Source: an uncultured Pseudomonadota bacterium
GTDB taxonomy: Bacteria > Babelota > Babeliae > Babelales > UBA12411
DNA length: 64,000 nt
Reading direction: 5' to 3'
NCBI GenBank assembly: GCA_964491895.1
Contig: CAZBHK010000007.1
Span: 258 to 64,257 of the forward strand
Position numbers and translations under genes: made by a program
The notes under the pieces: generated by a model
Databases searched by the model: none
The model's input: only the letters and a program-made list of their open reading frames with translations
What the model was told of the DNA's origin: nothing
Shown: one piece after another, positions 1 through 22,557 of the stretch
Numbering within the stretch: position 1 is the stretch's first letter
How the letters are laid out: every line of letters starts with the position of its first letter

Positions 1-1
1 A

Positions 2-1123
2 GATGTTAGCCTTACTATATCTAATGAATCAACAGTATTTTTAGCTGATGTGACTACGGAGCTCAAAATTACAGATTCGATATTTATTTATGGACGTAAT
101 AATGTTATTGATGTTATTAGAGATTTAACTATATCAGGATTTATGTTTTTTTTTAATGAGAGTGAATTAACCTTTAATTTTAATGATAAGCATGATAGCC
201 CAACTATTTTTTTAGATAACAATCTTACTCTTTCTCCAGATAGCAGGTTAGTGTTTCAGGGATCAGGTAATGTTGAACTTAAAAATGGGGTATCTATAGC
301 TTTACAAAATGGAGGAACACTTGTTTTTAAGGATGATACGATAGCTTTAATAGAAATAGGTGGTACCGCTACAATAAAAGGTATAGGAAAAGTAGCTCTT
401 CAACAAGGTGGAACAATCAATGTTCGAGGAGATACACATTTGATTTTAGGTGATGATATTACAGATAGTCTTAATATTTTAGTTGACAATGCCCTTATTA
501 AAATATCAGGTCAAGATGCTTTACTTTCACTTCAAAAAGCATCAGCGGTATTAAGCTTTGATGAGGGAGGTGTTTTATTAATACAAAATTATGGAATATT
601 CGAAGTTAATGCTCTAAATGGTGTTGCATCTCCAGGAGAAGTTACTAGTTGGGTATGGACAGAAGATAGCGTTTTTGATCTTGATGAAAATGGTCTGTTA
701 TTAATAGGGAATAATCTTTCTGGTAGTGGCTTTAATTGGATTAATACTGATGCAAAAATAATTGAGGATGTTGCTCCGTCTAAAAATGGACTTATCAGGT
801 TATTAGGATCTAATCCAGTATTTGAGGGTGTGATGCCTAACAAGGGTTCTGTTGTTATAGATGGAAGAGCTAGTGATTTGGTTGGAGAATTATTGCAAAG
901 ATCTACATTACAAGATCCTCCAGCTATATTGAATCAAAGTACTTTATTTCTTGACTTAGATGGTACTTATAAGATAAGACTGACAAATGGACAAATTACA
1001 ACTCTTAGAGCTGGAGATATAGTTACTTTAGATCAAAATGGAAGAGTATATGGCAATAATGGGGGAAGCACGTTTACGATTGCTCCAGGTATTATTGGTT
1101 CAGTTATTACTAGGACAGAATAA
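2..1123 (+). CDS. C-terminal ~370 aa of a giant beta-helical surface-protein paralog (module gene A'); the 5' end lies left of the window
   Basis: The frame is open from position 2 (DVSLTISNESTVFLADVTTELKITDS), so the track's GTG start at 50 is internal. It aligns by eye with the last ~375 aa of ORF 4046..9901 (LKITDSI.I.GR.NVIDV, SELTF.FNDK.D.P, DSRLVF, G.FEVN.LN.VA..G, .RL.NGQI..L..GDI.T). Confidence 0.8.
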   Translation, partial: DVSLTISNESTVFLADVTTELKITDSIFIYGRNNVIDVIRDLTISGFMFFFNESELTFNFNDKHDSPTIFLDNNLTLSPDSRLVFQGSGNVELKNGVSIALQNGGTLVFKDDTIALIEIGGTATIKGIGKVALQQGGTINVRGDTHLILGDDITDSLNILVDNALIKISGQDALLSLQKASAVLSFDEGGVLLIQNYGIFEVNALNGVASPGEVTSWVWTEDSVFDLDENGLLLIGNNLSGSGFNWINTDAKIIEDVAPSKNGLIRLLGSNPVFEGVMPNKGSVVIDGRASDLVGELLQRSTLQDPPAILNQSTLFLDLDGTYKIRLTNGQITTLRAGDIVTLDQNGRVYGNNGGSTFTIAPGIIGSVITRTE

Positions 1124-1137
1124 GTCTAGGATATAAA

Positions 1138-2295
1138 ATGGAGAAAAAAGAAAATAAAATAATATATTTTTTAGTAATATTATTTTTGACTACAACATCT
1201 AATATTTTTTCTATTACTATTCATAATAATCAAGAGAAAAACTTCTTTCAATCAATAGATAATAGAATTTCAAAATTTTGGAATAAAAAAGTTATACCTA
1301 TAAGAATACTTGATGGATATATAACAGCACAACCGAGTTTATTTAATATTATTCAAGAAAAATTTAATAGATTGGTTTCTAATATAAATAATTTGGATAT
1401 ATCAGATGTTAATAAAGAATATTCTGCACAAGAATCAGGAGGTATATTTACTAAGCTTGGACAGAATTTAAAAATAAAGATTTTAGAAATTTGGAATTAT
1501 GAGCCACTTATTTTATTAACTGTTCTTGAGGGTCCTATAACATCAGAACCATCTATATTCGAAGGTTTTAAAATACCTAGCTTTAATGATAGTGGAAGTG
1601 TGTTGCATATTCTTCAAGGAGTAGGTAAAGAGGCACTTACGAATGAGTTGTCAGAGGAAAAGAGCTTTTTTGCTAAAGGAAAGCAGTATATTGCAGAAAT
1701 ATTAAAAAAGTTTTTATCACCTGAGCCTGATACAATAGCCTTGTATGTTACAAGAGAGAGAGAAAAATTCCAAAAAGAGATGGAAAAGTATCTTCAATAT
1801 GATGACTTAGAAAGTAAGTTAGAAACTTTTGAAAATCATCTTAAAGATTTTAATCAAAATATTGAACAGGACAAACAGGAGTTATTGGTAAGAACAAAAC
1901 ATATTAAAAAGTTAAAACATAATGATAGTTTGAAAAAAGGCTTAGCAACAAAGATTGATAAGATGGCATCAAAGATGGTTTTTGTGGATAAGGATTTACA
2001 AGATAGGTATGAAAAACTTTATTCTGAGTTTAATAATACAGTAGAGAAAAGACTTTCATCTACTCAGGACTCGATGAAAAATGAGATAGATAATAAATTT
2101 AAACAGCTAGAGAAAAAATTAACTAAGAAAGAAAATTCTGAGGATTATAATCTTAGTAGAAAGGAGATTTCTTATTTGATAAGAGAGTCTGTAAAAAGAC
2201 ATATGTACCTTTCAAAAGAAAGAGTTGGTAAGCAACGTAAGTATGATGCCAATGAAGTTGTTGAAATAATACAAAAAATGCTTTTAAATAAATAA
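1138..2295 (+). CDS. Anchored or secreted coiled-coil protein (module gene B')
   Basis: N-terminal hydrophobic segment IIYFLVILFLTTTSNIF and a K/E/Q-rich helical C-terminal half. The tail VKRHMYLSKERVGKQRKYD resembles VRRQMYVPRPAKRQYS of ORF 9898..10779. AGGA lies upstream of the ATG, 14 nt after the A' stop. Confidence 0.6.
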   Translation: MEKKENKIIYFLVILFLTTTSNIFSITIHNNQEKNFFQSIDNRISKFWNKKVIPIRILDGYITAQPSLFNIIQEKFNRLVSNINNLDISDVNKEYSAQESGGIFTKLGQNLKIKILEIWNYEPLILLTVLEGPITSEPSIFEGFKIPSFNDSGSVLHILQGVGKEALTNELSEEKSFFAKGKQYIAEILKKFLSPEPDTIALYVTREREKFQKEMEKYLQYDDLESKLETFENHLKDFNQNIEQDKQELLVRTKHIKKLKHNDSLKKGLATKIDKMASKMVFVDKDLQDRYEKLYSEFNNTVEKRLSSTQDSMKNEIDNKFKQLEKKLTKKENSEDYNLSRKEISYLIRESVKRHMYLSKERVGKQRKYDANEVVEIIQKMLLNK

Positions 2296-2296
2296 G

Positions 2297-3865
2297 ATGT
2301 TTAATAAATTAAAGTTAATTATAAGTTTTATTATTGTAAGTTCATTTTCTCCAAATGTTGCGGATCTTTTAGTTGAGCCTATAGAGGACGTGAATAAAGA
2401 TGGCAAGTTGGATATGATAGATATTATTCCTAAGCTTGCAACAAAGAGGCAGTTTAAGTTTGCTCGTGAATTAGAGAATCAGGTTAAGAAAGAAGTGGAA
2501 TGGCAAAATCGAAGAATGCATCGTGAAGCACTTCGAGATAAGGTTTATGATAGAGTTCGTCTACGTAAAGGCCGTGAAATTAATACTGATGATCTAATAT
2601 ACAAGATTCCTTCTTGGCCGTTTAGTTCTATTTACTATGCAGAAAAAGATTTATTTGAGATAAGTTTGAAGGCTAATGATTCAACAAAAGCATTTAATTC
2701 ATCAGGTGGTTCTCAAGATATATCTAAGTTAGTTTTTGGACAAAAAAGTATTAAGTTACAAGATATTTTACTTGTTTCTAAATTACTGAGGTCGGGTGTT
2801 TTACAATCTTTAACATCAAATCCTAATAATACTGGTCATTATTATTATATTTTGGCGAATCAGCCTATAGAGTTTGATGCCTCAATTAACAGCCAAAGGG
2901 CAACGGTAAGCTATGCAAGACATTTTAGGAATGGCGATATTTCATTTGGTTTAGAAGTTCCCATAGTGCGTAGAGAAAATAAACTTAAGTTAATTTCTTC
3001 AATTTCTTCTACTGATAGAAATAGTTTACAAAATAAAACACCGTATTTCTTTGCAAAATATGCAGATTTAGAAGAATTTTTTTCTGCTATTTTAGGTGCT
3101 AGTCATATATCATTTAATAAACATGATCGAGAGGTTGGCTTAGGTGATATATCTACCTTTATAAACTTTGAAATTAATTCTAAGAATTTTGAACGTTTTA
3201 TTATTGGCGCAAAATTACTTTTTCCTACAGCTAATGATAGGGAAGTGGATGTTTTATGGCATCCAGATTTGGGGAATGGAGGTTTTATAGAATGTTCAAT
3301 ATTTGCTGGTCTTTTGCTGGACTATAATAAATATTTTAATCCTTATGTCTTTGTAAATATTACAGGTGTTATTCCTGCAAAAGTCTCTCGTCGTGTTCCT
3401 ATTAAGAAGGAATATGATGGAGGAGATCCTAATTCTAACGTTGGAGATTTTTTAATACTTGGTGATACGGAAGTTCAATATAAGGCAACAACATTTTCTG
3501 AGTTTGATACATCTGTTCGTAGGTTTCCTAGTGTTGTAAAAAGTATAAAGATACATAAGGGCCCACAATTTTATTGTAAGTTGGGTAACGTCTTTGAAGA
3601 GGTATTGTTTAAGCATGGTTTTTTAGATACTTTCTATGACGTTAGATTAAAAGCTTCTGATTATGTAGGTTCTTATAAGGATAGTTCTATTAATCCTGCA
3701 GTGTTAAAGGAAAATACCTTTGAAATAGACCATCGTTTTGGTTTTAATTACGATTATCAGTTTAGTGGTAGGCAGAGGATTACAACTGGGTTTGCTATGT
3801 CTATAGCTGGTAGGAATACACCACAAACTTTTGAGGGTAATATAGCCTTTAGTACAGAGTTCTAA
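2297..3865 (+). CDS. Outer-membrane beta-barrel-like protein (module gene C')
   Basis: Signal-like N-terminus (LKLIISFIIVSSFSPNVA), a charged helical stretch, then alternating-polarity sequence ending ...EGNIAFSTEF with a terminal Phe, as in OMP C-terminal signatures. Clear paralog of ORF 10805..12400 (roughly 60% identical in the stretch I aligned by eye). Starts 1 nt after the B' stop. Confidence 0.6.
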   Translation: MFNKLKLIISFIIVSSFSPNVADLLVEPIEDVNKDGKLDMIDIIPKLATKRQFKFARELENQVKKEVEWQNRRMHREALRDKVYDRVRLRKGREINTDDLIYKIPSWPFSSIYYAEKDLFEISLKANDSTKAFNSSGGSQDISKLVFGQKSIKLQDILLVSKLLRSGVLQSLTSNPNNTGHYYYILANQPIEFDASINSQRATVSYARHFRNGDISFGLEVPIVRRENKLKLISSISSTDRNSLQNKTPYFFAKYADLEEFFSAILGASHISFNKHDREVGLGDISTFINFEINSKNFERFIIGAKLLFPTANDREVDVLWHPDLGNGGFIECSIFAGLLLDYNKYFNPYVFVNITGVIPAKVSRRVPIKKEYDGGDPNSNVGDFLILGDTEVQYKATTFSEFDTSVRRFPSVVKSIKIHKGPQFYCKLGNVFEEVLFKHGFLDTFYDVRLKASDYVGSYKDSSINPAVLKENTFEIDHRFGFNYDYQFSGRQRITTGFAMSIAGRNTPQTFEGNIAFSTEF

Positions 3866-4045
3866 AGATAAAATTCTCAGTATTTGACTTCAAATTTATT
3901 TAAATGTCAAAATCTATTCCAAATTCAGATTGGAGATTTATGCGTATACTAACGCATTTAATATTTTGTTTAATGTTATTTTCTAATGTAGTAAAAAGTT
4001 CAGAAGACCAGAGGATAATATAGATACGTATAAATATAAGGAAGT

Positions 4046-7000
4046 ATGGTCGTGAATCGGTTAAATTTACGTATTTTTTTAATTATTCTTTTTTTTTCTA
4101 CTAATTTGAATCCTCTTACTGTTGGTTCAGATACAGCAGTTTCGCGTTTATATTCGACACCAGTATTTCTTTCTGGGGATACTTTAAATAATATTGTAGG
4201 ATTTACTAAGTTAGAATCAGGGTTTAGTTTAGAAACTTCGGATGTTACTTGTACATTTGATGCATTTTTCCCAGTTTCAGGTTCCATATTATTAAATAGT
4301 GGATCACTATTTTTAAAACATGATTTAGTTTTATCTAATACAAGTTCAATAGTTTCTCTTGGATCTATACTAGGAAATAATAGGTCTATACAATTTCCTT
4401 CAGCGTTTACTGGATCAGATTTTGGTTCAGGTGGTTCAATTACTGCAGGTATTGTGCAATTAGCTTCCTCTGTAGTAGATGCTACTGTAAATGTTCAGAT
4501 TATTGATTGGGATCCGACTGGGTCATATTTGGCTGTAGGTATGCCAAATTCGGCAAGTGACCAGGAACTTCGGGTTTATTATTATAATTCAATAGATAAT
4601 TCACTTACGTTAACCTTTGTATATCCTCTTGGTGCTACAACTAATATTAATGCTCTTAAATGGTATCCGAAGTATACATCCCTTACGACAACAACTTCGC
4701 CGGCATTAGCTGTAGCAAAAAATAGTACTGATACAGATACTAATGCTGTAAGTATTTTTCAAGTAAGGCAAGCACCTGGTTTTTTAGGATTGGTAAGAAC
4801 AACAGCAATCGTAGCTGGTAGCAATCAGACATCCATTACATGGTCTAATAGTGGTAATTATCTAATATATGGACAGAATAATGCTAATGAAATTCAGGCA
4901 TATTCATATGTACCATCAACTGGTGTTGCTACTGCACTTGGTGCAGCAGTTTCTCCATTCAGTGTTACAAGATTAGTGAGTAAAAGAGCTATATCATTTA
5001 GTCCTGGAGATGATTATTTTGCAGTTGCAACTAACAGTGCTCTTAGTAGCCCACATATGGATATATATGCATTTTCTGCGGCAGGTATTGGAGCGGTTAT
5101 AATTGATAATGGTACAGCGCCTCTTATTGATGCAAATGCTAATTCTATTTATTCATTGGATTGGTCACCTACTGGTAGTTATATAGCGGTAGGTTTTGGT
5201 GGTGGTGCTATTCCTCATTTAGCAATTTATAAATTTGCACCTACTCCAACATTAACTCAGGTTGCAACCAATAGTGATGCAGCTGGCACTACTGTAGAAT
5301 GTGTTAATTGGACAAGTGATGGTAATAGACTATTAACTACTAACGGTCTCAATCAAATACGTATTTTTTCTTGGGATAAAGGAGCAGAGGCTTTATCTGT
5401 TGTAAATGGTAAAAGTTTGCCGACATTAAGTACAGCATCTTGTTGGCAAAGATTTGGTCTTAATAAATTTGGAATAGCCTTGAATACACCTGGAACAGTA
5501 CGTATATATGGTTTTGATCAGCAAGCGGTATTCCAAGACGTATCTTTATTCTTTAGAAATGATATAGATTTTAATAAAAATATTGATATTTTGGGTAATG
5601 TTTATATTAATATGTTAGGTAATCAGTTTTCTATAAGTTCTGGTGGTAAGTTTACTATTTATCCTAATAGTACTCTTTATTTTGATAGTTCTGCTATTAA
5701 TTTAAATGTTCATGAGCCTTTTGTATTAATAGATAATACTTCTCAATTAGCATTACATAATGCAACTATTTTACTTGAGTCTGATATTGTTTTTAATAAT
5801 GGTGGTATAAGTATTTCCCAAGGTGATACTTATATTGAGGGAGCTCATACCTTTTCATATAACAGTGTATATAGTTCTACTATAGATAGTTTTTCATCAT
5901 TAAGTTTAGTTAACGGTGTTACTTTATGTATAGGAGATTCTGCTGATGGTTCTTTATTAAAAATAGGATCACCATTAGAGTTTGTTGATAATACTTCTGA
6001 ACTAATATTACAAGAATCAACGCTTTTTATTACAGATACTGGTTTACATCTTTTAAAAGGTAAAATGAGGATAGATCAAAATGTTGTTTTGGATATAGCG
6101 AATACACAAACAACATTTGGGTTAATTATAGGTGATGGTACTACCGCTAATGATTTTGAAATATATTTGAGTCTTGCAGCGTCTAAACTTCAGTTGGAGA
6201 ATGGTGCTCTAATATACAAAAATAACAGTAATTCTAGAGTGAGTTATCATAGTAATGGAGTGATATATTTACAGGATGGATCTTTATTATATTTAGATCG
6301 ACCATTAGAATTATTAAACGGTATATTAAGATATGATAATGTTACTTCATTAAGTGTGCCTACATTATCTAATTCATATTTCACTGTTGATAATATTATA
6401 GGTAATTATAGTGGTAATCATAAGAATATAGAATATAATTTAACTGGCACTATTAAAGATTTACAAAATTTTGTATTAGATACAAATGATATCTTTTCTA
6501 TTAATCAAGGAATCTTGACTGATGTAATTGTAACAGTCTCTAGAGGTAATAATATTTTTAATGGTTTATCCAAGTATGAAGGTTTGCTTTCTTTAGTTGA
6601 TTATAATAGTACTGTTACCTGGGTTAATTTAGTTTTATCTCATAATGATATTACCTTGAATGGTGGTAAATTAATAATTGGTTCAAATTTAATGTTTGAA
6701 GAAATGTCGTCATTGAGAACTTCGGGTACAGTAGTGATACAAGAATACATTTTATGTTTAAGTTCGATTGAACATACCGAAGATGCAAATTTATATATTG
6801 ATTCTTCTTCTGGAATTATATGTTTACAAAGTAATATTACTTTAGATAATAGTTGGACGGTTAGTGGCAATCTTCGTATTCATGGTAATGGTTATAATAT
6901 ATTGTTTGATACATCAGGAGAGTTTGTTGTTGAACGAGGATCTACTCTGGAACTTCAGGATGTACATATAGACTCACTTTTTGATAGTAAATTACGTTGT

Positions 7001-9901: not shown

Positions 9902-10779
9902 GGGCTGAAATGAAGGGTTTAATATTTGCTATTTTGTTACCTATGTATGTTTGTGCAGATACAAATTTAATTTCTAAAAAGAATTTTAATGAAGAGTCTT
10001 TTGACGAAGATGATTTACAACAAAAAATTCAATCAAGACTTAAAGACGTTCAATATATGAAATCTGAGCTTCAGCTAAAAAAAACAGCAACTGACACTGA
10101 TCCTGGTGTAATGTTTAAAGTTGGAAGATTGTTTATTAGCATTAAATCACAGTTATATAAAATGTATGTAAAATTTCAAACTGCTGTAGAGAACAGGCTT
10201 AGTGTTCAAGAAGAACTTTCTAAACTTCAACAAGACAAGTTACTGAGAGTAGAAAAGACGTTAGAAAGCTTAAATCAAAATCTTCACGATACTGAAGAAC
10301 GTGTTCTTTCTAAGGTTGCTAATGCTACACAAATAGGTTCTATTCAGGATGAGCTTTCTGAAAAAGTGAAAAACGAAATCGTACAGTTAAAAAAAGACGT
10401 AGAGAAAGAAAAAGAAGAATTAGTTTCAAAAGTTGTTGGACATTCTTCATCATCTGTTAAGTTACTTGAAGATCAAATTTCTAAAGTTAAAGAAGAAGTT
10501 AGTAAGGAAAATTTGGATAAGAGATTTGAGGCTATGCTTTCTAATGTGATTTCTGCAACACAAGAAATGGTAAAGAAAGAAGTGGCAAGAAGTTTGGCTG
10601 GTGTATTGAATAAAAAATCATTACCAGAAGTGAGTCCTTCTGTTAAGGCAGATAATGGAAAGGGCGGCATATCAGAACTTATACAAAAGGAAGTAAGACG
10701 ACAAATGTATGTGCCTAGACCCGCTAAGCGACAGTACTCAGTTAGAAGAGATTACGTTGACGAAGAAGATTTAGATTAA
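9898..10779 (+). CDS. Anchored or secreted coiled-coil protein (module gene B)
   Basis: The ATG overlaps the stop of the giant ORF (ATGA). Hydrophobic N-terminus MKGLIFAILLPMYVCA, E/K/L-rich heptad-like sequence, and a C-terminal tail related to ORF 1138..2295. Confidence 0.65.
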   Translation: MRAEMKGLIFAILLPMYVCADTNLISKKNFNEESFDEDDLQQKIQSRLKDVQYMKSELQLKKTATDTDPGVMFKVGRLFISIKSQLYKMYVKFQTAVENRLSVQEELSKLQQDKLLRVEKTLESLNQNLHDTEERVLSKVANATQIGSIQDELSEKVKNEIVQLKKDVEKEKEELVSKVVGHSSSSVKLLEDQISKVKEEVSKENLDKRFEAMLSNVISATQEMVKKEVARSLAGVLNKKSLPEVSPSVKADNGKGGISELIQKEVRRQMYVPRPAKRQYSVRRDYVDEEDLD

Positions 10780-10804
10780 CGCCACATGGTTAAAATTTGA
10801 GTGG

Positions 10805-12400
10805 TTGAATGTGTATAAAATATTCCTTGTTTTCCTATTATTAACAAGCTTCTTTGTACAGGCAAATGCTGAAGTTACTCCAGAGCTTCAACGTAAAATT
10901 AGAAAAGAGATAGAAGCTCAACAGCGCTTGCAGTACAAGGAGAAGGTAAAACAAAAAAATCTAGCTGAAAAAATCAAATCTAAAGTCAAACAAGAGATCA
11001 AATGGCAAAATTATAAGATCCAGCGTCAAGCTAAAAAAGATCAGCTTGCTGGTAGGGTCCGTATGCATAGCCCTTCACGATTTGATCATGAAGATTTTAT
11101 CTATAAAATTCCAACATGGCCATTTAATTCAGTTTTCTATGCTGAGAATGACCTGTGTGAGTTGAATCTTAAGGTTAATGGTGCTTCAAGAGCGTTTGAC
11201 TCTTCAGGATCATCAAGAGATATTTCTAGATTAGTTTTTGGAGAAAAGGATTTAGTGCTTCAAGATATCTTATTAGCTTCCAAATTGCTTAAGGCTGGTA
11301 AAATACAAGCTAATTCTGCCAAGTTAGTGGGACCACCACCTGTTACCGCTTCTCGTTATCATTATTATTATATTTTGGCTGACCAACCAATAGTTTTTGA
11401 TGCATCTACCAGTAGTCAGAGATTAGACTTAAATTATGCCAGACATTTTAGAGATGGTGATATTTCTTTTGGGCTAGTAATCCCTGTTATACGTAAAGAG
11501 AATAATATTAGACTGGAATCTGGTATTTCTTCGGTTATACGTAGTCAGTTAGAAGCTGTAAGTCCTAGATTTGCTGATAGGTTTGGTACACTGCAAGATT
11601 TATTACAGGAAATTTTAGGTGCAAGTGGTATTTCATTTAATAAAAAGGATAGAGAAGTAGGGATAGGCGATGTCCAGGTCTTTGCTAACTTGGAAATTCC
11701 TAGCGAATATTTTGAACGGTTTGTTACAGGATTCAAGGTTTCTATTCCAACAGCCAATGGCAGGAAGACTGATAAACTTTGGGATCCTGAGCTAGGCAAT
11801 GGTGGGTTTTTAGAGATGTCCTTGTTTATGGGTTTACTTAAGAGCTTTAATAAGTATTTTAATCCTCATATGTATTTAGAGCTTACTGGCGCTATTCCAG
11901 CAACTGTTAATAGACGTGTACCTATTAAGAAGGAGTATGATGGAGTTTTACCTGCTAGTGGTGTTCCTATAGGAGATTTTTTGCTTTTAGGTCAGGCTGA
12001 GATTCAGTATCTAGGCGGTACTACTTTTAGTGAGTTTGATACTCAGGTAAGGAATTTTCCTATTACTGTTAAGGGTGTAAAAATACGTAGGGGGCCTCAA
12101 ATTAATCTTAGAATAGGTAACATTATAGAAGAGGTCTATTCACGTAAGGGATTCTTAGAGCTTTTTTATGACCTTAGGTTAAAGGGTGCAGATTATCTGA
12201 GCTTGGGTAGAAGCTGGGATGGTTACGATCCTTCTATATTAACTGACAATACTTTTGAATCTGAGCATCGCTTGGGATTTAGCTATGATTATCAATTTTC
12301 AGGAAGACAAAGGGTCAATATTGGTTTTCTCGCAGGTATTACCGGTAGAAATACTCCTCAGGTTTTAGAGGGTAATATAGCATATAGCTTAGAGTTTTAG
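10805..12400 (+). CDS. Outer-membrane beta-barrel-like protein (module gene C)
   Basis: Signal peptide (KIFLVFLLLTSFFVQANA/EV) and a charged helix (KQEIKWQNYKIQRQAKKDQ). Paralogous to ORF 2297..3865 along its whole length and ends EGNIAYSLEF. The start may be TTG 10805 or GTG 10811. Confidence 0.65.
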   Translation: MNVYKIFLVFLLLTSFFVQANAEVTPELQRKIRKEIEAQQRLQYKEKVKQKNLAEKIKSKVKQEIKWQNYKIQRQAKKDQLAGRVRMHSPSRFDHEDFIYKIPTWPFNSVFYAENDLCELNLKVNGASRAFDSSGSSRDISRLVFGEKDLVLQDILLASKLLKAGKIQANSAKLVGPPPVTASRYHYYYILADQPIVFDASTSSQRLDLNYARHFRDGDISFGLVIPVIRKENNIRLESGISSVIRSQLEAVSPRFADRFGTLQDLLQEILGASGISFNKKDREVGIGDVQVFANLEIPSEYFERFVTGFKVSIPTANGRKTDKLWDPELGNGGFLEMSLFMGLLKSFNKYFNPHMYLELTGAIPATVNRRVPIKKEYDGVLPASGVPIGDFLLLGQAEIQYLGGTTFSEFDTQVRNFPITVKGVKIRRGPQINLRIGNIIEEVYSRKGFLELFYDLRLKGADYLSLGRSWDGYDPSILTDNTFESEHRLGFSYDYQFSGRQRVNIGFLAGITGRNTPQVLEGNIAYSLEF

Positions 12401-12494
12401 CTGGTTTTAGATGTCTTGAGTGGTTGCAATGTTTTCTTGCATTGTTATACTCCAATTATTTACTAAATGTCTAAAATTAGCTTTGCAGGTTGTT

Positions 12495-13916
12495 ATGTAT
12501 TTATCTAAATTTTCAAGAATATTTCTTTTAATCTTTTTTGTGTCAGTTGATGTTGTATTTGGTGAAATTGATGAAACGCAGGCAGCTGATGTTGTGGACT
12601 TTTTAAATAGGTCGACAAGAACACGTAGAGGTACAAAATTTCAGCGTTTTATTGATAAGGCTAATTTATCTGAAACACTTTCTAGTCTCAGGAATAAAAC
12701 ACAGAAGTTTTATGAAGAGAATGAATTAGCTGATATTGAAGCAGGTATATTAAAGGCTGAAAATCCTATAGATAAAGAAAAATTAGAAAAAAATCATAAT
12801 TGGGTTTATTACAAACAAAGAAGAGAACTTGAAAACGCTTTGGATACTGCTTTATTGTCAGGATCAGCGAATCCATGGACAGATGCTTTTGTAGTGGGAA
12901 TGATAGCTTCTCAACCTAAAATTTATGAAGCGCTTCAGGACGAGGGTGTTTTTGATGCACTAAAGAATGAAAATGATGGAGCTGTTGCTGAAGCTGCCAA
13001 AAAGGTAGGGATAGGTTTGCTAGCAGTTTCTGCTGAATCTGTAGGCAAGACAGTTAATAATATAGTCTCACAGAACTTTGGTAGTCCGTTGGAAAGAATA
13101 GCAAGGGTTATATTTGGTAGTATTGGTAATTTTTCTAGAAAGATTTGGACCAAGTCGGTCAAGATCTATTATGGTGTTCAAGGCGAGCCGTTTGCCCATC
13201 AAGAGGTTAAAGATTTTGGCATAATTGTTGATACTATGCTTGAGGATTATAAAGAAACCTGTAATAAGGCTGTTAATAATATGAGTAATCGAGAACGTAT
13301 TAATAGGAAGAAGAATCTTGATGACGCAGAAGAAGTTCTAGAAAAAATAGATGAAATAGTCTTCGAAATAACTAAGTCTCATGTTAAAAAATCAATGGAT
13401 ATTTCTATATTAGGAGATTCTAAGACTACTATATTAGAGAAAATATTTGAGGCTTATGATAAGGATTTTATCCCTAAAGAATTAGAGGGTGTTAAGACCT
13501 TTGCTGAGTTGATTAATGTAATACAGATGGACTCTGACTGGAAGGATGAGCGTGAGCATTCCTTAAATAGTATAGTTGGTCTAGTTGACTACTTTAATAT
13601 TAGAATGGCTTACTATTCTAAGGATAAAAGTTCTATGGAGTTTCGTTATGCATCTATGATCAGAGAGCGTTTATTAGAGTTTGCATCTATGATATCTCTT
13701 GCTACTTCTGATAAATATTTTGGTAGTGAGCAAGCTCAAAGACGTCTTAGACGAATAAGAAGTGGTTTGGCTAAAAATTTTGAGAATCTATTAAAGTATA
13801 TTCCTAATCTTGAGTTCGCTGGTGAAGAGAAGAAGGTAGAAGCTAAGAAAAAACGTACACGACCATCTTTTGGTGAATATGAAGAAGAAGATTATGGATT
13901 TAATAGGTTGATGTAA
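12495..13916 (+). CDS. Secreted, largely helical protein of unknown function (cluster gene D)
   Basis: The ATG at 12495 gives MYLSKFSRIFLLIFFVSVDVVFG/E, a signal-peptide-like N-terminus. The track's upstream GTG extension (12420) lacks one. Acidic/basic tail KKRTRPSFGEYEEEDYGF. No motif I recognise. Confidence 0.6.
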   Translation: MYLSKFSRIFLLIFFVSVDVVFGEIDETQAADVVDFLNRSTRTRRGTKFQRFIDKANLSETLSSLRNKTQKFYEENELADIEAGILKAENPIDKEKLEKNHNWVYYKQRRELENALDTALLSGSANPWTDAFVVGMIASQPKIYEALQDEGVFDALKNENDGAVAEAAKKVGIGLLAVSAESVGKTVNNIVSQNFGSPLERIARVIFGSIGNFSRKIWTKSVKIYYGVQGEPFAHQEVKDFGIIVDTMLEDYKETCNKAVNNMSNRERINRKKNLDDAEEVLEKIDEIVFEITKSHVKKSMDISILGDSKTTILEKIFEAYDKDFIPKELEGVKTFAELINVIQMDSDWKDEREHSLNSIVGLVDYFNIRMAYYSKDKSSMEFRYASMIRERLLEFASMISLATSDKYFGSEQAQRRLRRIRSGLAKNFENLLKYIPNLEFAGEEKKVEAKKKRTRPSFGEYEEEDYGFNRLM

Positions 13917-14740
13917 TGTATCATAAACTTGTATTGATTTTATTATTATCGTCTAGTTTTTTAAGTGCTAATCTTAATGAGATTAATGTTGAACATGTGC
14001 AGAAACACAAAGAGTATTATCTAAAGCAAGCTCGTAATCTAAAATATTTCAAGGTAACTGCTTGCGTATCTGCTACTGCAATAATATCTGCTATTATAAT
14101 AAAAATGTTATATAGCACTAAGCAGCCGATTGTTAAGTCTATTATAGATCCAAAGTTAAAAGAAACTTTATTTGCTGAGTTGGTACAAAAAGAACTTGAG
14201 AAAAAGAATAGAACATCAATAGAGGCATTTACTGCTTTTTTTAAACGCAATATTATATCGGGCTTGAGTTTGACTGCAACAAGTCTTGTTTTGGGTTTTG
14301 GAGATGAAGTTAAGGGCTCTTTATTTATTAGAATTAAGCAATTTTTAAAATATAAAATTGACCCAGTAATATTTAATGAAGCTCAAGTTTTTGATAACAC
14401 ATATAGTTTACATTTATACTTAACTGATTTTGTAGAACAGGCAAATACTGAGATAGATAAAGCTCATCATAGGGAACAGATAGTGTTAGGCTATGGCTTG
14501 CTTTTAGAAACAGTTGAACGATTCATGGCTGCTTTGTGTCTACAGGCACAAGCTTCTCAGGAGAAATGGCTTCTTAATTCGGAAAATAAGCTTTTTAAGG
14601 CTATGAGCTCATTAAAATTTAAAGTTGAACAAATACTTGATAATGAAAATCCTAATATTAAAGAGGTAGAGGTTGCTTTAAATCATTTAGTACATTGTCT
14701 TGGTATGGTTGCTAAAAATTGTGAGGCTCAAATTGTATGA
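13916..14740 (+). CDS. Membrane protein of unknown function (cluster gene E)
   Basis: The start overlaps the gene D stop by 1 nt (TAATG). Signal-like N-terminus LVLILLLSSSFLSA plus hydrophobic segments VTACVSATAIISAIIIKMLY and IISGLSLTATSLVLGF. Confidence 0.6.
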   Translation: MYHKLVLILLLSSSFLSANLNEINVEHVQKHKEYYLKQARNLKYFKVTACVSATAIISAIIIKMLYSTKQPIVKSIIDPKLKETLFAELVQKELEKKNRTSIEAFTAFFKRNIISGLSLTATSLVLGFGDEVKGSLFIRIKQFLKYKIDPVIFNEAQVFDNTYSLHLYLTDFVEQANTEIDKAHHREQIVLGYGLLLETVERFMAALCLQAQASQEKWLLNSENKLFKAMSSLKFKVEQILDNENPNIKEVEVALNHLVHCLGMVAKNCEAQIV

Positions 14741-15602
14741 ATTTTTTTTAATAGTTGCCTTTTCTATAGTAAGTAGTATTTATGCTTGTTCATGGTGTAA
14801 AGATGTTGGTTTAGATTCTTTATCAATCAAGCTTGATGGAATAGTAGAAAAACCAGTAGGTTCATTTAAAGATTTACTTGAACAGTTAGGTAATTATGAT
14901 TCTGGGACTTTTAAGGCATTCATGGATAATAACTGTGAGGATTCGGCTTTATCTATTACTCAAGAGCAAATCAAAACACATCCTGAGTTAGGTGAAGTTT
15001 TTTATAAGCTTTATCTAGCAAAATATTTTCCGAGAGCTCTTGTTATTACAGACCATTTTACTGAGATGTGTCCTATAGCAATAGAGGCAGCGCTTAATGA
15101 GATTATAATCATTATTACAAATGAGCCGTGGTTTTATTTCAAAAATAAACCAGACAAGTTCTTTCTGGATGAATACTGGGAAATTATTCTTGAACAATAT
15201 AAAACAATAAGTTGTTTTTTAGAAAGAGCATTGATTGACCCAATAACTAATAAAGTTTTCTTAAAAGATTCTGGTGGACTTATATTTATTGGAGAGGATC
15301 AACTAAGTAATTTTGAGTTTACTTCTAATAATAATGGTATTCCATTAACGCGATATTGGGCTCAAAATGGTATAGATAGTTTTTTTAAATTTCATGCTCA
15401 GCATTGTGATTTTATAATAAAAATATTTAATGAAGCTATTCAAAATCAAGATTATAAAAAAGCATTTTCATATTATTTAAAGCTTAGAGATGCTGTCCCA
15501 AAGTTACAAAATTCGCAATACGAAATTTTGTATCAAGAAAAACTTGAAGATGATAAGTGGTTACTAGAAGAGCTTCGTAAGCAACAAGGTTATAATGTTT
15601 AA
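14733..15602 (+). CDS. Possible lipoprotein or secreted helical protein (cluster gene F); start uncertain
   Basis: ORF open from 14700. TTG 14733 gives MYEFFLIVAFSIVSSIYAC.., a signal with Cys, and overlaps the gene E stop (14738-14740). No recognisable catalytic motif. Confidence 0.5.
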   Translation: MYEFFLIVAFSIVSSIYACSWCKDVGLDSLSIKLDGIVEKPVGSFKDLLEQLGNYDSGTFKAFMDNNCEDSALSITQEQIKTHPELGEVFYKLYLAKYFPRALVITDHFTEMCPIAIEAALNEIIIIITNEPWFYFKNKPDKFFLDEYWEIILEQYKTISCFLERALIDPITNKVFLKDSGGLIFIGEDQLSNFEFTSNNNGIPLTRYWAQNGIDSFFKFHAQHCDFIIKIFNEAIQNQDYKKAFSYYLKLRDAVPKLQNSQYEILYQEKLEDDKWLLEELRKQQGYNV

Positions 15603-18600
15603 AAAAGTTTTTTTATTATTTACTGTTGCTTCTTGTCTTGCTTCAGAGTTTAAAGATCTAAATAGCTTTATAAAAAGTAGTATAGATCATTATGACTTTA
15701 AGGTAGAGGGTAGATATACACATGAATATCATCCATTTATTCTAGATAAGACTATCAATAGTTTATATCAGCTTAAGGATAGGCTTACAGTAGAAGGATT
15801 AGATCTTCAAGGACATTTAGTTGTAACTGGTTATGAAGGAGAGGCTATCCCTTCATATTATACCGATTATAACAAGGCAAAGATTAATGATGAGATGAGC
15901 TCAAAAAGTAAGGCTGGTATCTCTATTAGACCACATAATTATTTTGGGTTAATGACAGGATTTTTATTCAGAGACCTTAATTTACTTTCTACTAAATGGC
16001 TCAAGAATACGTCTGTGGTGTTTGAACATGTATGTCCAGAAAATGTTGAAATTTTAAATCTGAATGAAATTTTTCAAAGACATGCCTTTCGAGATTCTTT
16101 AGATTTTATGAATGATTATCAGGTATCGATAGAGAAGAAATTAAAAAAAGAAGATTGGAAGGGCATTTATTCAGAATTAATTAACTATTGGGATGCCTTG
16201 TATAAAAGTGAGATTACTATTATGGGTGATCAGGTCGCAGCTACACAGGATATTTTATTTTCAATAGATTACGGTAAATATCTTCTCAAATCTAATTTGC
16301 CTATGATTAAGTTTTATTGTGGTGCGGATATAACATATCCAATTGAAGAATCTATGAAGCAGGGTAAAGCGGCTACTATTAATGCACAGACCTTTGTTAA
16401 AAAGTTGGCACTAACTTTAAAACCAATAGATAGTAAAAAAACAGTTTATGTTTTTAATAGTTTTGTTGATGGTGTAGGCAAGAGTACAATGCTTGGCAAT
16501 ATTAAGAACTGGATGCAGTATGGATCTAAAATAGAAGATTATAAGCGTGTTGATAATTCTTCTTCTCAATGGGCAGAAGTCTTTCAGTTTAGTGATAGTG
16601 TATATATAGCTGATCTTCCAGCTCAAATGAGTCATTTTACATATAAGCCTGATGGACTTGTTTATGTAGAGTTTTCTTCAGAAAAAAATAAGGGCGATAC
16701 CGAGGATATTAAGAAACTTAAAACTTTTATTCTTAATAATAAAGAACAGATTTATAACAAATTTAATAAACTTTTTGATGAAATTTTAAAGATTTATAAG
16801 GAGAATGGACCTTTTGAAAAATCTTTAAATAATCAGAATATGCCAGATAGAGCATTTATTAAAAACTTGATCCTGTTAAATAAAATAGATTCTCCATGGG
16901 TTGCTTTTGAGTATGAAGGTGAAAAATATTTATTTAATTATGACATTCCTTCAGAAATTCGTATTCTGCGTACAATAGCTGGAGCATCTTCTTATGGATT
17001 GAAAAATATAGAATCAGAACAAATGTTGTTTTTTGAGGGAATACGATTTCCAGTAGCCTATCAAAGTTTTTTAGATGACCTTGTAGCTAAATTAAAAAAA
17101 GAAAATATTGAAAAAGTAGTGTTTGTAGATTTCTTAAGTATGTATCCACGTTCATCTAGGGAAAATATTCGTATAAATTACTTAGTACAGCAGATGGCTC
17201 TTCTTGATAGTAAGTTTGAAACTAAGAAATCCCTTTATAAGAACTTTATAAGTCCTGCAGAGCTTTATAGTGATATCTTGAATAAGAAGATGCGCACTAC
17301 TATGTTAAATGGTTTTGAACTTGAAATTATTACTAGATACCTATTATATAAATTTTTGGAAAAACGACCAAGTAATAATTTAGAAGGGTTAAGTATTTTT
17401 GATTTAACCATTTTACTTGATAAAGGGTTAAAGAATTTTAAAAAGAATAAGAAATTTTATAATTTTTTACATGATTTATCAAATGAAAAGTTTATGTTTG
17501 AAGAGGAAACTTTGAAAAAAGTTTTTGGGTTAAAAAAAGAGTTTGTTAATATTCAGCAATTTTCTTTTGATCTAGCAAAAACTTTTTCAGATATAATGCA
17601 GTTATACTTTACTGAGTATTTTAAGAATGATCGTCTTAATAAGCTTTGGGATGGATTAGAGGAAGAGGTTTCTGCTGTGCAGTTTCCACAGTATTCACTT
17701 GGATTTGTTAAGGAAGAAAGAAATATTTTATCCCTTAATAGTGGTACTAATCTTTGGGTACATTTTGATTTTCCAATTGATTATCATCAAAGTAATTTTT
17801 TAGCACCATTTTTTCAAACATTGCGTGCTAACTGGTATGCTTCTTTAGCTAATTTGCTTTTTTTACATGAAAAATATTCCGTGCCTCCAATGGTTTTAAA
17901 ATATGGAAAACTTTATTCAAATAGTTTGGAGTTTGATAGGATTTATTTAGGCCAAAAAGTACTTCCTGAGTGGATCGGTAACAGACAGAAAAAAATAACA
18001 ATGTTTAACTTGAGCACTTTTAGTAACCAACAGTGGGGAGAGTTTAACTCAAAACCATATCTTTTAGATTGGGATAATGGATATCCTACTAATTATGGAA
18101 TGTTTGCCTTTGGTCTTCCAAAAATTAAGCAAAAATCAACAATGGAATTTTTTGTAAAATTTTCTCCGATTGCTAGCATTATTACTGAGTATCAGAAAAA
18201 GAATGGTCTTCAATCTGTATTGCCTACATCACAATTGTATTTAGAGCTTAAAAAAAATTCTAATTGGTATGATGAATATAAGCGATTGTATCAACAAGCA
18301 AGACAGAATGGTTATTATGATCCTTCAAAAACCTTTAATACTGTAAGGCATACTGGAGAAGTTAAAAATATTTATCTTGGTACACAGAAAATGAAAACAG
18401 GTGCGGCATTATTTGTAAGAATGATTGCAACCTTGGAAATGATAGTTAAGGATGCAGATTCAGATATTGTTGTACGTAAAGGAAATAAGCAAGACTTTGT
18501 GGCAGCATTACATCTTATAGAAAAAATTACTTTACCTAGATACTTCGGAATAATATTTGAAGAACCACTATTTGATGATTATACTAAAGTGGAACCAGTT

Positions 18601-18639
18601 ATTCATTGGAGTGAATTTGATACTTACCTATATACATAA
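15595..18639 (+). CDS. 1014-aa putative lipoprotein or anchored protein with a nucleoside/nucleotide-kinase-like P-loop (cluster gene G)
   Basis: The ATG overlaps the gene F stop by 8 nt. N-terminus MFKKVFLLFTVASC carries a lipobox-like VASC. Single P-loop NSFVDGVGKSTMLGN resembles the (E/D)G.(D/I)G.GKST loop of dTMP/deoxynucleoside kinases. The rest is unrecognised. Confidence 0.7.
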   Translation: MFKKVFLLFTVASCLASEFKDLNSFIKSSIDHYDFKVEGRYTHEYHPFILDKTINSLYQLKDRLTVEGLDLQGHLVVTGYEGEAIPSYYTDYNKAKINDEMSSKSKAGISIRPHNYFGLMTGFLFRDLNLLSTKWLKNTSVVFEHVCPENVEILNLNEIFQRHAFRDSLDFMNDYQVSIEKKLKKEDWKGIYSELINYWDALYKSEITIMGDQVAATQDILFSIDYGKYLLKSNLPMIKFYCGADITYPIEESMKQGKAATINAQTFVKKLALTLKPIDSKKTVYVFNSFVDGVGKSTMLGNIKNWMQYGSKIEDYKRVDNSSSQWAEVFQFSDSVYIADLPAQMSHFTYKPDGLVYVEFSSEKNKGDTEDIKKLKTFILNNKEQIYNKFNKLFDEILKIYKENGPFEKSLNNQNMPDRAFIKNLILLNKIDSPWVAFEYEGEKYLFNYDIPSEIRILRTIAGASSYGLKNIESEQMLFFEGIRFPVAYQSFLDDLVAKLKKENIEKVVFVDFLSMYPRSSRENIRINYLVQQMALLDSKFETKKSLYKNFISPAELYSDILNKKMRTTMLNGFELEIITRYLLYKFLEKRPSNNLEGLSIFDLTILLDKGLKNFKKNKKFYNFLHDLSNEKFMFEEETLKKVFGLKKEFVNIQQFSFDLAKTFSDIMQLYFTEYFKNDRLNKLWDGLEEEVSAVQFPQYSLGFVKEERNILSLNSGTNLWVHFDFPIDYHQSNFLAPFFQTLRANWYASLANLLFLHEKYSVPPMVLKYGKLYSNSLEFDRIYLGQKVLPEWIGNRQKKITMFNLSTFSNQQWGEFNSKPYLLDWDNGYPTNYGMFAFGLPKIKQKSTMEFFVKFSPIASIITEYQKKNGLQSVLPTSQLYLELKKNSNWYDEYKRLYQQARQNGYYDPSKTFNTVRHTGEVKNIYLGTQKMKTGAALFVRMIATLEMIVKDADSDIVVRKGNKQDFVAALHLIEKITLPRYFGIIFEEPLFDDYTKVEPVIHWSEFDTYLYT

Positions 18640-18995
18640 TATATTAAGAAATTTTTCATTATTTCGAGCTCTTTTAAATTAAATAATTTATTGGGTAACT
18701 TTGCTTTTTTAGCATTGAACGCTTTATCCAAATCATTTAAAGTGAACTCTGGATTAGAAAAAAGACCTAACCCTTTTATACAAAAGATAATAGGCATCTC
18801 ATTACATTGTTTCTTAGGATGCTTAATGTTAAATTGTTCAATTAATACAAGAACTTTTTCTCTTAATTCTTCTTGTGTAGGACTTTGTATTGGGCTTTGT
18901 TCTTTAAATTCCTCTTGAAAAAACCATTCTAGCTCGTCGTTAATTGCATTTAATGTTGATAAAGAGAATAATATTATTAATAATAAATTTTTCAT
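18624..18995 (-). CDS. Small secreted protein, unknown function
   Basis: MKNLLLIILFSLSTLNA signal peptide. Convergent with gene G, with a 16-nt 3' overlap. Confidence 0.5.
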   Translation of the reverse strand: MKNLLLIILFSLSTLNAINDELEWFFQEEFKEQSPIQSPTQEELREKVLVLIEQFNIKHPKKQCNEMPIIFCIKGLGLFSNPEFTLNDLDKAFNAKKAKLPNKLFNLKELEIMKNFLIYYVYR

Positions 18996-19150
18996 TTCTG
19001 TGCGTATTTAATTAAAGGTTCTATTGATGAATTTAAAGTTATTTAAATAATAAATTACTTTTCTATATAGCAATATGTACTGTTTTTAACAAAAATGCAA
19101 CTTTCTGGTATTTTAGATAATATTTTTTAATAAAAATAATTTTGAGAGCT

Positions 19151-21718: not shown

Positions 21719-21962
21719 TTTTTAAGTAATTGATTATATCATTACTTTCATACATTTTAGTATTACCATCAACTAGAAATGGTACTTGTCTTTTACCACC
21801 AAGTTTTATAAGCCTATCCATATTGTCTTTTGCATCAACTATTGTTACTTGATTTTCTATATTCAGTTTTTTAATTTCGTCTTTAACTTTAACACAATAG
21901 GGACACCATTCCGTTACAAATAATTCCATCATCATTAGTATTGATAAATATTTTTTTATCAT
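21705..21962 (-). CDS. Glutaredoxin / NrdH-like small redoxin
   Basis: ELFVTEWCPYCVKVKDEI.. carries a CPYC active site, and RQVPFLVDG matches the Grx fold motif. The track's longer N-terminal extension runs into the divergent ankyrin gene, so the start was trimmed to ATG 21962 (an internal MMM at about 21935 is also possible). Confidence 0.8.
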   Translation of the reverse strand: MIKKYLSILMMMELFVTEWCPYCVKVKDEIKKLNIENQVTIVDAKDNMDRLIKLGGKRQVPFLVDGNTKMYESNDIINYLKTKKK

Positions 21963-22011
21963 ATAATTTACCCTTTCTTTATCATTATATTTAACAAGTA
22001 AAGGGATTTTT

Positions 22012-22371
22012 ATGAAATATTTAAAATTAATTCTTTTAAATATTATTTTGATGTCGTCAGTTTTTGCTGTTGATAAAGCAAGTCTAGTAGGTAATACACC
22101 CCTACACAAAGCAGTTCAGGAACAGGATACAAAAGCTGTTGCTACATTATTGAAAGATGGAGCATTAGTTGATAAAAGAAATTATTTTTGTCAGACATCG
22201 CTATATATAGCTACCAAGCTAGGTAATACTGATATTGCTGCTCAACTACTTAAGGCCGATGCAAGGATTAATGCATTAAATTGCTTACGTGAAACACCAT
22301 TACATATAGCGGTTAGAGCACAGCAATTAAAGATGATTGTATTTTTGCTTAGTGAGGGTGCTGATTGGTAA
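22012..22371 (+). CDS. Secreted ankyrin-repeat protein (ends inside a repeat)
   Basis: Signal peptide LKLILLNIILMSSVFA, then ANK repeats (GNTPLHKAVQEQDTKAVATLLKDGALVD, QTSLYIATKLGNTDIAAQLLKADARIN, RETPLHIAVRAQQLKMIVFLLSEGADW*). Confidence 0.8.
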   Translation: MKYLKLILLNIILMSSVFAVDKASLVGNTPLHKAVQEQDTKAVATLLKDGALVDKRNYFCQTSLYIATKLGNTDIAAQLLKADARINALNCLRETPLHIAVRAQQLKMIVFLLSEGADW

Positions 22372-22557
22372 GCTAGAAACTTGAAGGGCGATACTCCGGT
22401 TGATTATGCCTTTAACAAATTTCCGCGGAATTCTCCATCCAAAATCTCTTAGATTTGGGTGGCGATGGATAGCGGATAGACCGTAGGTCTAAAAATATTT
22501 TTATAAAGCTTATTCTTTTGATACTATGGTAATAGGTTTTCAAAGGGAGAGTAAGAT

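Follow-up and report, generated by a model that had tools for sequence, protein, structure and literature searches.

The first 18.6 kb of the window, a 64,000-nucleotide stretch of contig CAZBHK010000007.1 recovered from a groundwater metagenome and belonging to the Dependentiae/Babeliales (TM6), are occupied by ten open reading frames (ORFs). All lie on the + strand, the GC content of the region is about 30%, and the coordinates agree with those of an initial annotation made from the letters of the DNA alone. On comparative grounds the region falls into two units of different kind, a module A-(B)-C, present twice (A'-B'-C' followed by A-B-C), and a unit D-E-F-G. A-(B)-C appears to be a two-partner surface-protein module specific to Dependentiae, in which A is a giant acidic protein with a signal peptide and C a predicted outer-membrane beta-barrel whose nearest structural match is FapF, the outer-membrane transporter of the Pseudomonas functional-amyloid (Fap) system. 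We lean towards reading it as a FapF-like, split-autotransporter-like module for the partner-specific export or anchoring of A. The features of the two copies are the following.

A', 2..1123, + strand: last 373 residues of a giant A-type protein, including the conserved A C-terminal domain; BLASTP match to A.
B', 1138..2295, + strand: exported charged protein of 385 aa, probably helical, with a hydrophobic N-terminal segment at residues 8-29.
C', 2297..3865, + strand: predicted outer-membrane barrel protein of 522 aa, paralogue of C, with the end ...AFSTEF.
C'/A intergenic gap of 180 nt, 3866..4045, + strand: promoter-like site at 3884-3913, terminator-like hairpin at 3940-3957 and the ribosome-binding site (RBS) AAGGAAG before the start of A, all as consensus matches.
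A, 4046..9901, + strand: acidic signal-peptide protein of 1951 aa, net charge -80, 9 Cys.
A, WD40-like beta-propeller, 4466..5455, + strand: residues ~141-470, from Pfam matches.
A, internally repeated modules, 5546..8473, + strand: residues ~501-1476, from self-BLAST; presumed beta-solenoid.
A, C-terminal domain, 8726..9898, + strand: residues 1561-1951, Cys-free, from tblastn and alignment.
B, 9898..10779, + strand: exported charged protein of 293 aa, with the C-terminal motif IQKEVRRQM and an acidic tail.
C, 10805..12400, + strand: predicted outer-membrane protein of 531 aa with FapF-like architecture; the start is possibly GTG 10811.
C, charged helix, 10880..11047, + strand: residues 26-81, predicted periplasmic, followed by a low-confidence linker (82-105); includes VKQEIKWQN.
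C, beta-barrel body, 11150..12397, + strand: residues 116-531 with terminal Phe, from the AlphaFold2 model.
C, most conserved loop of the family, 11747..11809, + strand: residues 315-335, PT[AG]...W.PELGNGGF.

C was modelled with AlphaFold2 from a 35-sequence alignment, and the model was compared with the PDB by Foldseek. The model (predicted local distance difference test score, pLDDT, 87.7; predicted template-modelling score, pTM, 0.79) starts with the signal peptide, after which come a long helix at residues 26-81, a linker of low confidence at 82-105, a barrel at 116-531 and an invariant terminal Phe, which is the last residue of both C and C'. FapF was the top match in all crystal forms (PDB 5O65, 5O67 and 5O68; E 3.5e-13, probability 1.0, target-normalised template-modelling score, TM, 0.71-0.77). 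The second match was a channel of COG4313 / PF13557 (Phenol_MetA_deg), Pput2725 (PDB 4RL8; E 3e-11, TM 0.73-0.75). FadL/TodX matched poorly (E ~1e-7, TM ~0.3), and the beta-domains of the autotransporters BrkA, NalP, Hbp and EspP gave E values of 4e-7 to 2e-5 with TM 0.43-0.55. C is confidently modelled as an outer-membrane beta-barrel of the FapF/COG4313 (autotransporter-like) class. The initial annotation had described C as a barrel-like protein with a signal peptide, a charged helix and a final Phe, and this description holds, the protein being predicted to fold as an outer-membrane barrel and not as a soluble protein; its view that C was unrecognisable does not, since C has the domain order and the fold of FapF.

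In FapF, an N-terminal coiled coil that forms a trimer is followed by a disordered linker of 40 residues, a helical plug and an autotransporter-like barrel of 12 strands with Phe (F406) as its last residue, and the nearest structure to FapF is that of COG4313 (PMC5557850). The resemblance of C to FapF lies in the same predicted order of domains (signal peptide, N-terminal helical region, disordered linker, barrel, C-terminal Phe), in a conserved PT[AG/G] motif at a loop base, and in a putative substrate that is a separate protein of the same gene cluster. Among 76 cluster representatives, the loop that carries this motif is near-invariant at P315, W326, G331 and G334, and it is reminiscent of the PTG motifs conserved in FapF and COG4313. 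C, for which the helix 26-81 and the low-confidence linker are predicted, showed no coiled-coil signal in a crude test of heptads, and the conserved helices 141-163 are, from model and alignment, plug candidates only. The differences are also clear. C has ~10% identity to FapF and no match at the sequence level, its barrel region is ~415 aa long against ~320 aa in FapF, with large conserved insertions (e.g. residues 132-197), and the neighbouring A-type protein is a solenoid/propeller protein of 1000-2000 aa, in contrast to the small subunits of the amyloid. In the neighbours A, B and D-G, Pfam and NCBIfam scans found no relative of FapA-E and no FapD/C39 protease. According to the initial annotation, a confident match of C to a known translocator with A as its known substrate would make this a known system; the fold is FapF-like, yet A is not a Fap substrate and FapA-E are missing, so that the system is not a known one.

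We then looked at gene order in 27 further loci, obtained through exact-protein look-ups and a scan of species-representative genomes. An A-like ORF was found immediately upstream of C in every locus with a usable upstream flank, the C proteins of these very divergent lineages being 25-58% identical, and A and C were separate ORFs in all loci. By tblastn, the A C-terminal domain lay directly upstream of C in 14 loci; the remaining loci had A-type repeats and a more diverged C-terminus. The A-C order pointed out by the initial annotation is therefore conserved across Dependentiae. The C family itself comprises 53 close relatives, and a profile search extended it to 459 cluster representatives (50% identity clusters); the named relatives come exclusively from Dependentiae, Babeliales or TM6, and Pfam domains are absent throughout. 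Several modules can be present in one genome, as in the window, in locus L002, and in L012 and L020, which belong to one metagenome-assembled genome.

The two copies in the window, A'-B'-C' (2..3865) and A-B-C (4046..12400), are true paralogous modules. A' is 41% identical to residues 1558-1937 of A (BLASTP, E 7e-73) and C' is 51% identical to C over its full length (E 0.0), while B' and B give a marginal BLASTP match (E 0.002) and have a weak C-terminal motif in common; the tandem repeat noticed at the outset is confirmed by the A and C identities and by the B motif. Both the downstream A and the downstream C are closer to their orthologues in L002, a related Babeliales contig (51% and 58%), than to the upstream paralogues A' and C', and the duplication is for this reason dated as old, the module having been duplicated as a unit. 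The truncation of A' is due not only to the window edge but to the assembly itself, as the 66-68-kb contig starts ~320 nt before window position 1.

Across relatives, A-type proteins are all acidic, and A is conserved at both ends and variable in the middle. Its propeller (~141-470) is matched by Pfam Beta-prop_THOC3 (E 4.2e-10) and ANAPC4_WD40 (E 8.5e-7, the latter above the cut-off), and in the Pfam and NCBIfam scans of all ten proteins nothing else was found. In self-BLAST, residues 501-785 resemble 925-1199 and residues 868-1064 resemble 1282-1476, with 30-37% identity (E 1e-28 and 7e-23, respectively). For the C-terminal domain (~390 aa), profile searches of PDB and Pfam returned only weak beta-solenoid matches, and nothing significant was found in the PDB, by sequence or profile, for either A or this domain; a beta-solenoid is a plausible fold for the repeated modules and the C-terminal domain. 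A profile of the domain had no matches in a set of 5.8 billion proteins, where the word prefilter was probably swamped; this does not speak for its absence, as tblastn finds the domain in 14 loci. The domain ends in a small conserved element, STxFxDxDGxxKxRxKNG...TGxVYG. At the other end, right after the signal peptide, stands a motif h-x-F-[GS]-[SN]-[RKQ]-[DN]-S (residues 24-33, window 4115-4144), which recurs in A-like ORFs of L004, L009, L010, L013, L014, L018 and L020-L022 (for example GVTFGSRDSTINV and TISFSRQDSKFRL) and is a candidate sorting or first-strand element.

In L002 (1354-8903) and L024 (1-6905), the equivalent of A consists of three consecutive ORFs, carrying respectively repeats, a WD40 region, and repeats with the C-terminal domain. 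The first two each open with the N-terminal ~120 residues of A, an arrangement that shows gene fission or fusion among passengers. A further giant protein (>3769 aa, faint WD40/propeller matches) is encoded at 18420-23030 on the - strand of L026, near the D-E-F-G-mutS region of a TM6 genome, and may be an A-like protein that does not adjoin a C barrel.

The start of A deserves a comment, as the public gene call places it at 4454 (1815 aa) and adds, at 4000-4287, an ORF of 95 aa on the minus strand. Better support exists for the start at 4046, because of its AAGGAAG RBS, the signal peptide, and homology to relatives from residue ~2-12 onwards, and the minus-strand ORF is probably spurious.

B is not a universal part of the module. 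The initial annotation took it for an N-terminally anchored coiled-coil protein and a regular component of the system; B is indeed exported and charged, and probably helical, but a heptad Fourier analysis, admittedly a crude test, gave no strong coiled-coil signal, and about half of the loci have no separate B gene. In loci without B, C itself is longer, being extended at its N-terminus by 100-330 aa of K/E/R-rich (or S/T-rich) sequence. These long C variants measure 552-812 aa in the loci and up to 1094 aa among cluster representatives, and the N-terminal extensions of the longest relatives are likewise K/E/R-rich or S/T-rich. Because an A lies upstream of every C and B is found in only about half of the loci, the A-C pair is best seen as the core of the module and B as an accessory of some lineages.

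A C-terminal motif, I.xEVxxQ[LMI], was found in 9 of the 11 B-position proteins, against 0.9% of shuffles. It reads IQKEVRRQM in B (residues 262-270, window 10681-10707); B' has the variant IRESVKRHM, and one other protein has a close variant. B' and B are members of one fast-evolving family. The same motif is carried by C proteins, at least 7 of 76 having it in their N-terminal helix, against 0.4% of shuffles; it appears as VKQEIKWQN in the C of the window (residues 61-69, window 10985-11011) and VKKEVEWQN in C'. B and the C helix may therefore be related, through a common origin or a common binding partner.

We infer how A would pass through C, what part B and the helix would play, and where the energy would come from. 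A would cross the inner membrane via Sec and be held unfolded in the periplasm. It would be captured there by the charged helix of C, and by B where present, B acting as a periplasmic capture element, and then be threaded through, or anchored in, the cognate C barrel. The conserved C-terminal domain of A may be the part that recognises C or docks on it, and the driving force could be vectorial folding of the solenoid outside the cell, as with autotransporters and FapF substrates. The picture of A as fibres and of B as their stalk, offered at first, is not supported.

A number of observations speak against export through C. In the model comparison, COG4313, which comes second after FapF in structural closeness, is an importer. 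Neither C as a single sequence nor the C-family profile matched the PDB at E<=10, and since the sequence of C matches neither FapF nor COG4313 nor any other PDB chain significantly, its fold match to FapF may in part reflect generic barrel geometry. DSSP delineates ~14 strand segments on the model, not 12. None of the four longest C relatives inspected (989-1094 aa) carries a fused A-like passenger, and a folded beta-propeller would be an unusual passenger for a narrow barrel. The A C-terminal domain is not a universal export signal for A-like proteins, because the two further upstream A-like ORFs of L002 and L024 are without it. Finally, G is absent from 8 C loci with 10-kb flanks, and D-G are missing from the flanks in about half of the loci.

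The first of these points leads to a different reading, in which C would be a COG4313/FadL-type uptake channel for hydrophobics, such as host lipids or fatty acids, on which a parasite for energy and lipids relies, and A an independent surface or secreted host-interaction protein that is its neighbour by descent. The COG4313 barrel (4RL8) superposes on that of C and precedes FadL/TodX among the structural matches, the PT[AG] motif of C is common to the proposed lateral gate of COG4313, and PF13557 is the sole Pfam family that recurs among C relatives, with sub-threshold matches in 4 of 76 and in 1 of 35 (best E 0.0044). The C of the window has no PF13557 match, and none of the 111 family members scanned reaches the gathering score (5 are sub-threshold). 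Heavy dependence of Dependentiae on host metabolites (PMC6561590) would also suit an importer. However, the COG4313 proteins are importers of hydrophobic compounds without a giant partner, whereas A adjoins C in every locus with a usable flank even at C identities of 25-58%. A and C moreover duplicate together, to several copies per genome, which is unusual for a nutrient channel, and the charged N-terminal helix and linker that C adds to the barrel are a feature of FapF, unreported for the COG4313 channel. We consider the uptake channel unlikely.

Slightly less probable still, in our view, is a role of C as an anchor and not a pore. A would then reach the surface by another route, through type II secretion (GspD) or vesicles, and be tethered through C, with B and the C helix as ties to the periplasm or the peptidoglycan. 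A type II system with two gspD copies does exist in Dependentiae (PMC4776705), the A propeller would be hard to thread through a narrow barrel, and the charged extensions of C, 330 aa or more at their longest, resemble periplasm-spanning tethers. On the other hand, we found no evidence of a docking domain on the outer face of C, and its fold class is that of known translocators.

Partner-specific export or anchoring through C, the reading we prefer, also has to be placed among the known secretion systems. With type Va autotransporters, chlamydial Pmp proteins included, the module shares a similar barrel of the 12-strand class, an acidic, repeat-rich and probably beta-solenoid protein whose conserved C-terminal part lies beside the barrel gene, and multi-copy polymorphic families; passenger and barrel are, however, separate genes here, and no protein of the region matches PF03797 or Pmp repeats. 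Two-partner secretion (TPS; type Vb, TpsA/TpsB) likewise sets a large exoprotein gene beside a dedicated outer-membrane transporter gene, but C does not belong to the Omp85/POTRA proteins, the barrel gene here comes after that of the passenger, and the candidate for recognition is C-terminal. No Pfam match to POTRA, ShlB or Haemagg_act was found, BamA, FhaC and Omp85 are absent from the structural matches to C, and A has no TPS domain. For the type I and type IX secretion systems, no ABC transporter, membrane fusion protein, RTX or sorting domain was matched by Pfam or NCBIfam in A-G or in the other scanned ORFs of the window. Type I and type IX secretion, TPS and classical autotransporters, for which the initial annotation had recognised no motif and which went undetected here by Pfam, NCBIfam or Foldseek, were set aside, their defining features being missing.

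The module most resembles the FapF system and autotransporters and is a member of neither. The split-autotransporter logic first put forward stands as the best-supported reading, with FapF, COG4313 and autotransporters as nearest structures; what does not stand is a B in every module. What is new is that a barrel of the FapF/autotransporter class is paired, in several copies and in Dependentiae only, with a separately encoded giant passenger, and literature searches on Dependentiae autotransporters, giant proteins, outer membrane and 'FapF-like' turned up no paper that describes it. Dependentiae live as widespread parasites inside protists, and their surface is almost undescribed; in the one well-studied isolate, ~44% of the proteins have export signals, and these are mostly orphans (PMC6561590). 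The A/C pair is probably one of their main ways to display host-interaction proteins, and C provides the first structural handle on this multi-copy pair of families. If C exports A, FapF-type barrels would be general and ancient partner-specific translocators rather than a curiosity of proteobacterial amyloids, and, after autotransporters and TpsB, they would be the third kind of system to follow a 'type V-like' logic.

The second unit of the region, D-E-F-G, is further from anything known than A-B-C, and this holds especially for G. Its features are as follows.

D, 12495..13916, + strand: exported helical protein of 473 aa, opening the D-E-F-G operon.
E, 13916..14740, + strand: 274 aa, signal peptide and a second hydrophobic segment (44-68).
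F, 14733..15602, + strand: exported protein of ~290-300 aa, with CSWC near the N-terminus and invariant aromatics; start uncertain (14700-14733).
G, 15595..18639, + strand: signal-peptide protein of 1014 aa, the best-conserved gene of the region.
G, Walker-A-like loop SFVDGVGKST, 16459..16488, + strand: residues 289-298, between a predicted strand (283-289) and a predicted helix (294-309).

The same four genes, in the same order and with similar sizes, were found in L002, L025, L026 and L027, and at least F and G, on the opposite strand, in L004, L009 and L010, where the locus ends inside G. In the window, L002, L011, L019 and L021, D-E-F-G lies downstream of C in the same orientation; it is divergent from A-B-C in L004, L009, L010 and L026, and has no A-B-C within 10 kb in L025 and L027. 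Counting the window, G lies at most 10 kb from C in 9 arrangements. Synteny thus points to D-E-F-G as a separate operon, conserved across the phylum. The initial annotation had seen one cluster of ten genes; the comparison yields two or three units, D-E-F-G being independent and phylum-wide, and a single ten-gene operon was rejected since comparative synteny splits the cluster. The frequent adjacency of D-E-F-G and A-B-C, in varied arrangements, is nevertheless suggestive of a functional link, and D-E-F-G may act as a common accessory in the biogenesis of the envelope or of surface proteins. Alignments of the D, E and F families show 11-49% identity; no match was found for D and F in the PDB, nor for F in Pfam.

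G has at least 324 homologues, ~40% identical over the full ~1000 residues; the named ones are all from Dependentiae, and the family has no Pfam domain. Most of the 35 aligned homologues have a typical Sec signal peptide, and in the four or five that do not, the called start is probably truncated. The loop SFVDGVGKST is invariant in all 35, except that S297 is occasionally T, and further invariant motifs are hhhhD at 336-340 and YPRSSRENIRINY at 517-529. A strand-loop-helix context is predicted around the loop, with hhhhD following at 336-340, and Foldseek matched no P-loop NTPase fold to it. The AlphaFold2 model of G is confident (pLDDT 85.2, pTM 0.86); searched by Foldseek against PDB and BFVD, it gave nothing below E 0.5 and no match to a P-loop protein. 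Recurrent protein-kinase-like Foldseek matches were very weak (probability <=0.33) and were judged unusable. By sequence and family profile, nothing significant was found for G in the PDB, and against Pfam the family had only stray, insignificant P-loop matches (CbiA in 2 of 35, AAA_18, IPT). With a confident fold that matches nothing solved, G, and D-E-F-G with it, offers a clearly delimited subject for work on structure and function.

A P-loop protein outside the cytoplasm is unusual. Energy parasites import host ATP across the envelope, so that ATP in the periplasm is conceivable and could be one rationale for an exported, P-loop-like G. All ten genes might also be taken as one machine, D-E-F-G being the periplasmic and inner-membrane part of A-type export and G the exported NTPase that powers it. 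The nearness of G to C in same-strand and divergent arrangements alike, the export signals on all of D, E, F and G, and the invariant loop in its strand-loop-helix context would agree with this. We nonetheless find it improbable, as D-E-F-G occurs without a nearby A-B-C (L025, L027) and A-B-C without a nearby D-G in the 8 loci mentioned above, and as the fold of G and its sequence match no P-loop NTPase beyond the stray hits already given; we know of no exported P-loop ATPase that drives secretion. The boldest form of the idea, a new envelope machine found only in Dependentiae, in which A-B-C would export giant proteins via FapF-like barrels and D-E-F-G would form a periplasmic complex with G as a novel-fold exported P-loop NTPase running on host-derived periplasmic ATP, deserves very little credence, even if its truth would mean that nucleotides are hydrolysed outside the cytoplasm to drive secretion across the outer membrane.

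All ten proteins have a hydrophobic N-terminal export signal, apart from A', the N-terminus of which is missing. The gene junctions reported initially are exact: A and B overlap as ATGA, as read from the sequence, B' and C' are 1 nt apart, D and E overlap as TAATG, and F and G overlap by 8 nt. The overlap of E and F is also 8 nt, on condition that F starts at TTG 14733; other in-frame TTG/GTG starts are at 14700, 14709 and 14721. The larger spacings are those between C' and A (180 nt, with its promoter-like and terminator-like sites) and between C and D (94 nt), and because of these two gaps the ten genes are unlikely to form a single transcript. Promoter- and terminator-like sites are as frequent across the scanned region as in shuffled sequence, and those in the gap weigh little.

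Downstream of G, mutS begins at 19142. A 123-aa minus-strand ORF (18624-18995) lies between the two, and L002 has a 156-aa ORF at the equivalent place. The rest of the window is ordinary chromosome, with mutS, ribonucleotide reductase, tRNA synthetases, recJ and an IS605 tnpB. The latter, at 22558-23769 on the + strand beside the ribonucleotide reductase genes, encodes an IS605-family OrfB/TnpB (OrfB_IS605, Cas12f1-like TNB and HTH domains), a mobile element or a relative of RNA-guided nucleases. At 41714-44455 (+ strand), a 913-aa protein has a partial sigma-54 interaction (AAA+) domain confined to its C-terminal third. A 604-aa protein encoded at 28654-30468 on the - strand contains a PLA2_B lysophospholipase catalytic domain (E 9e-32), a domain type that is mostly eukaryotic, and is a possible effector of the parasite acting on host membranes.

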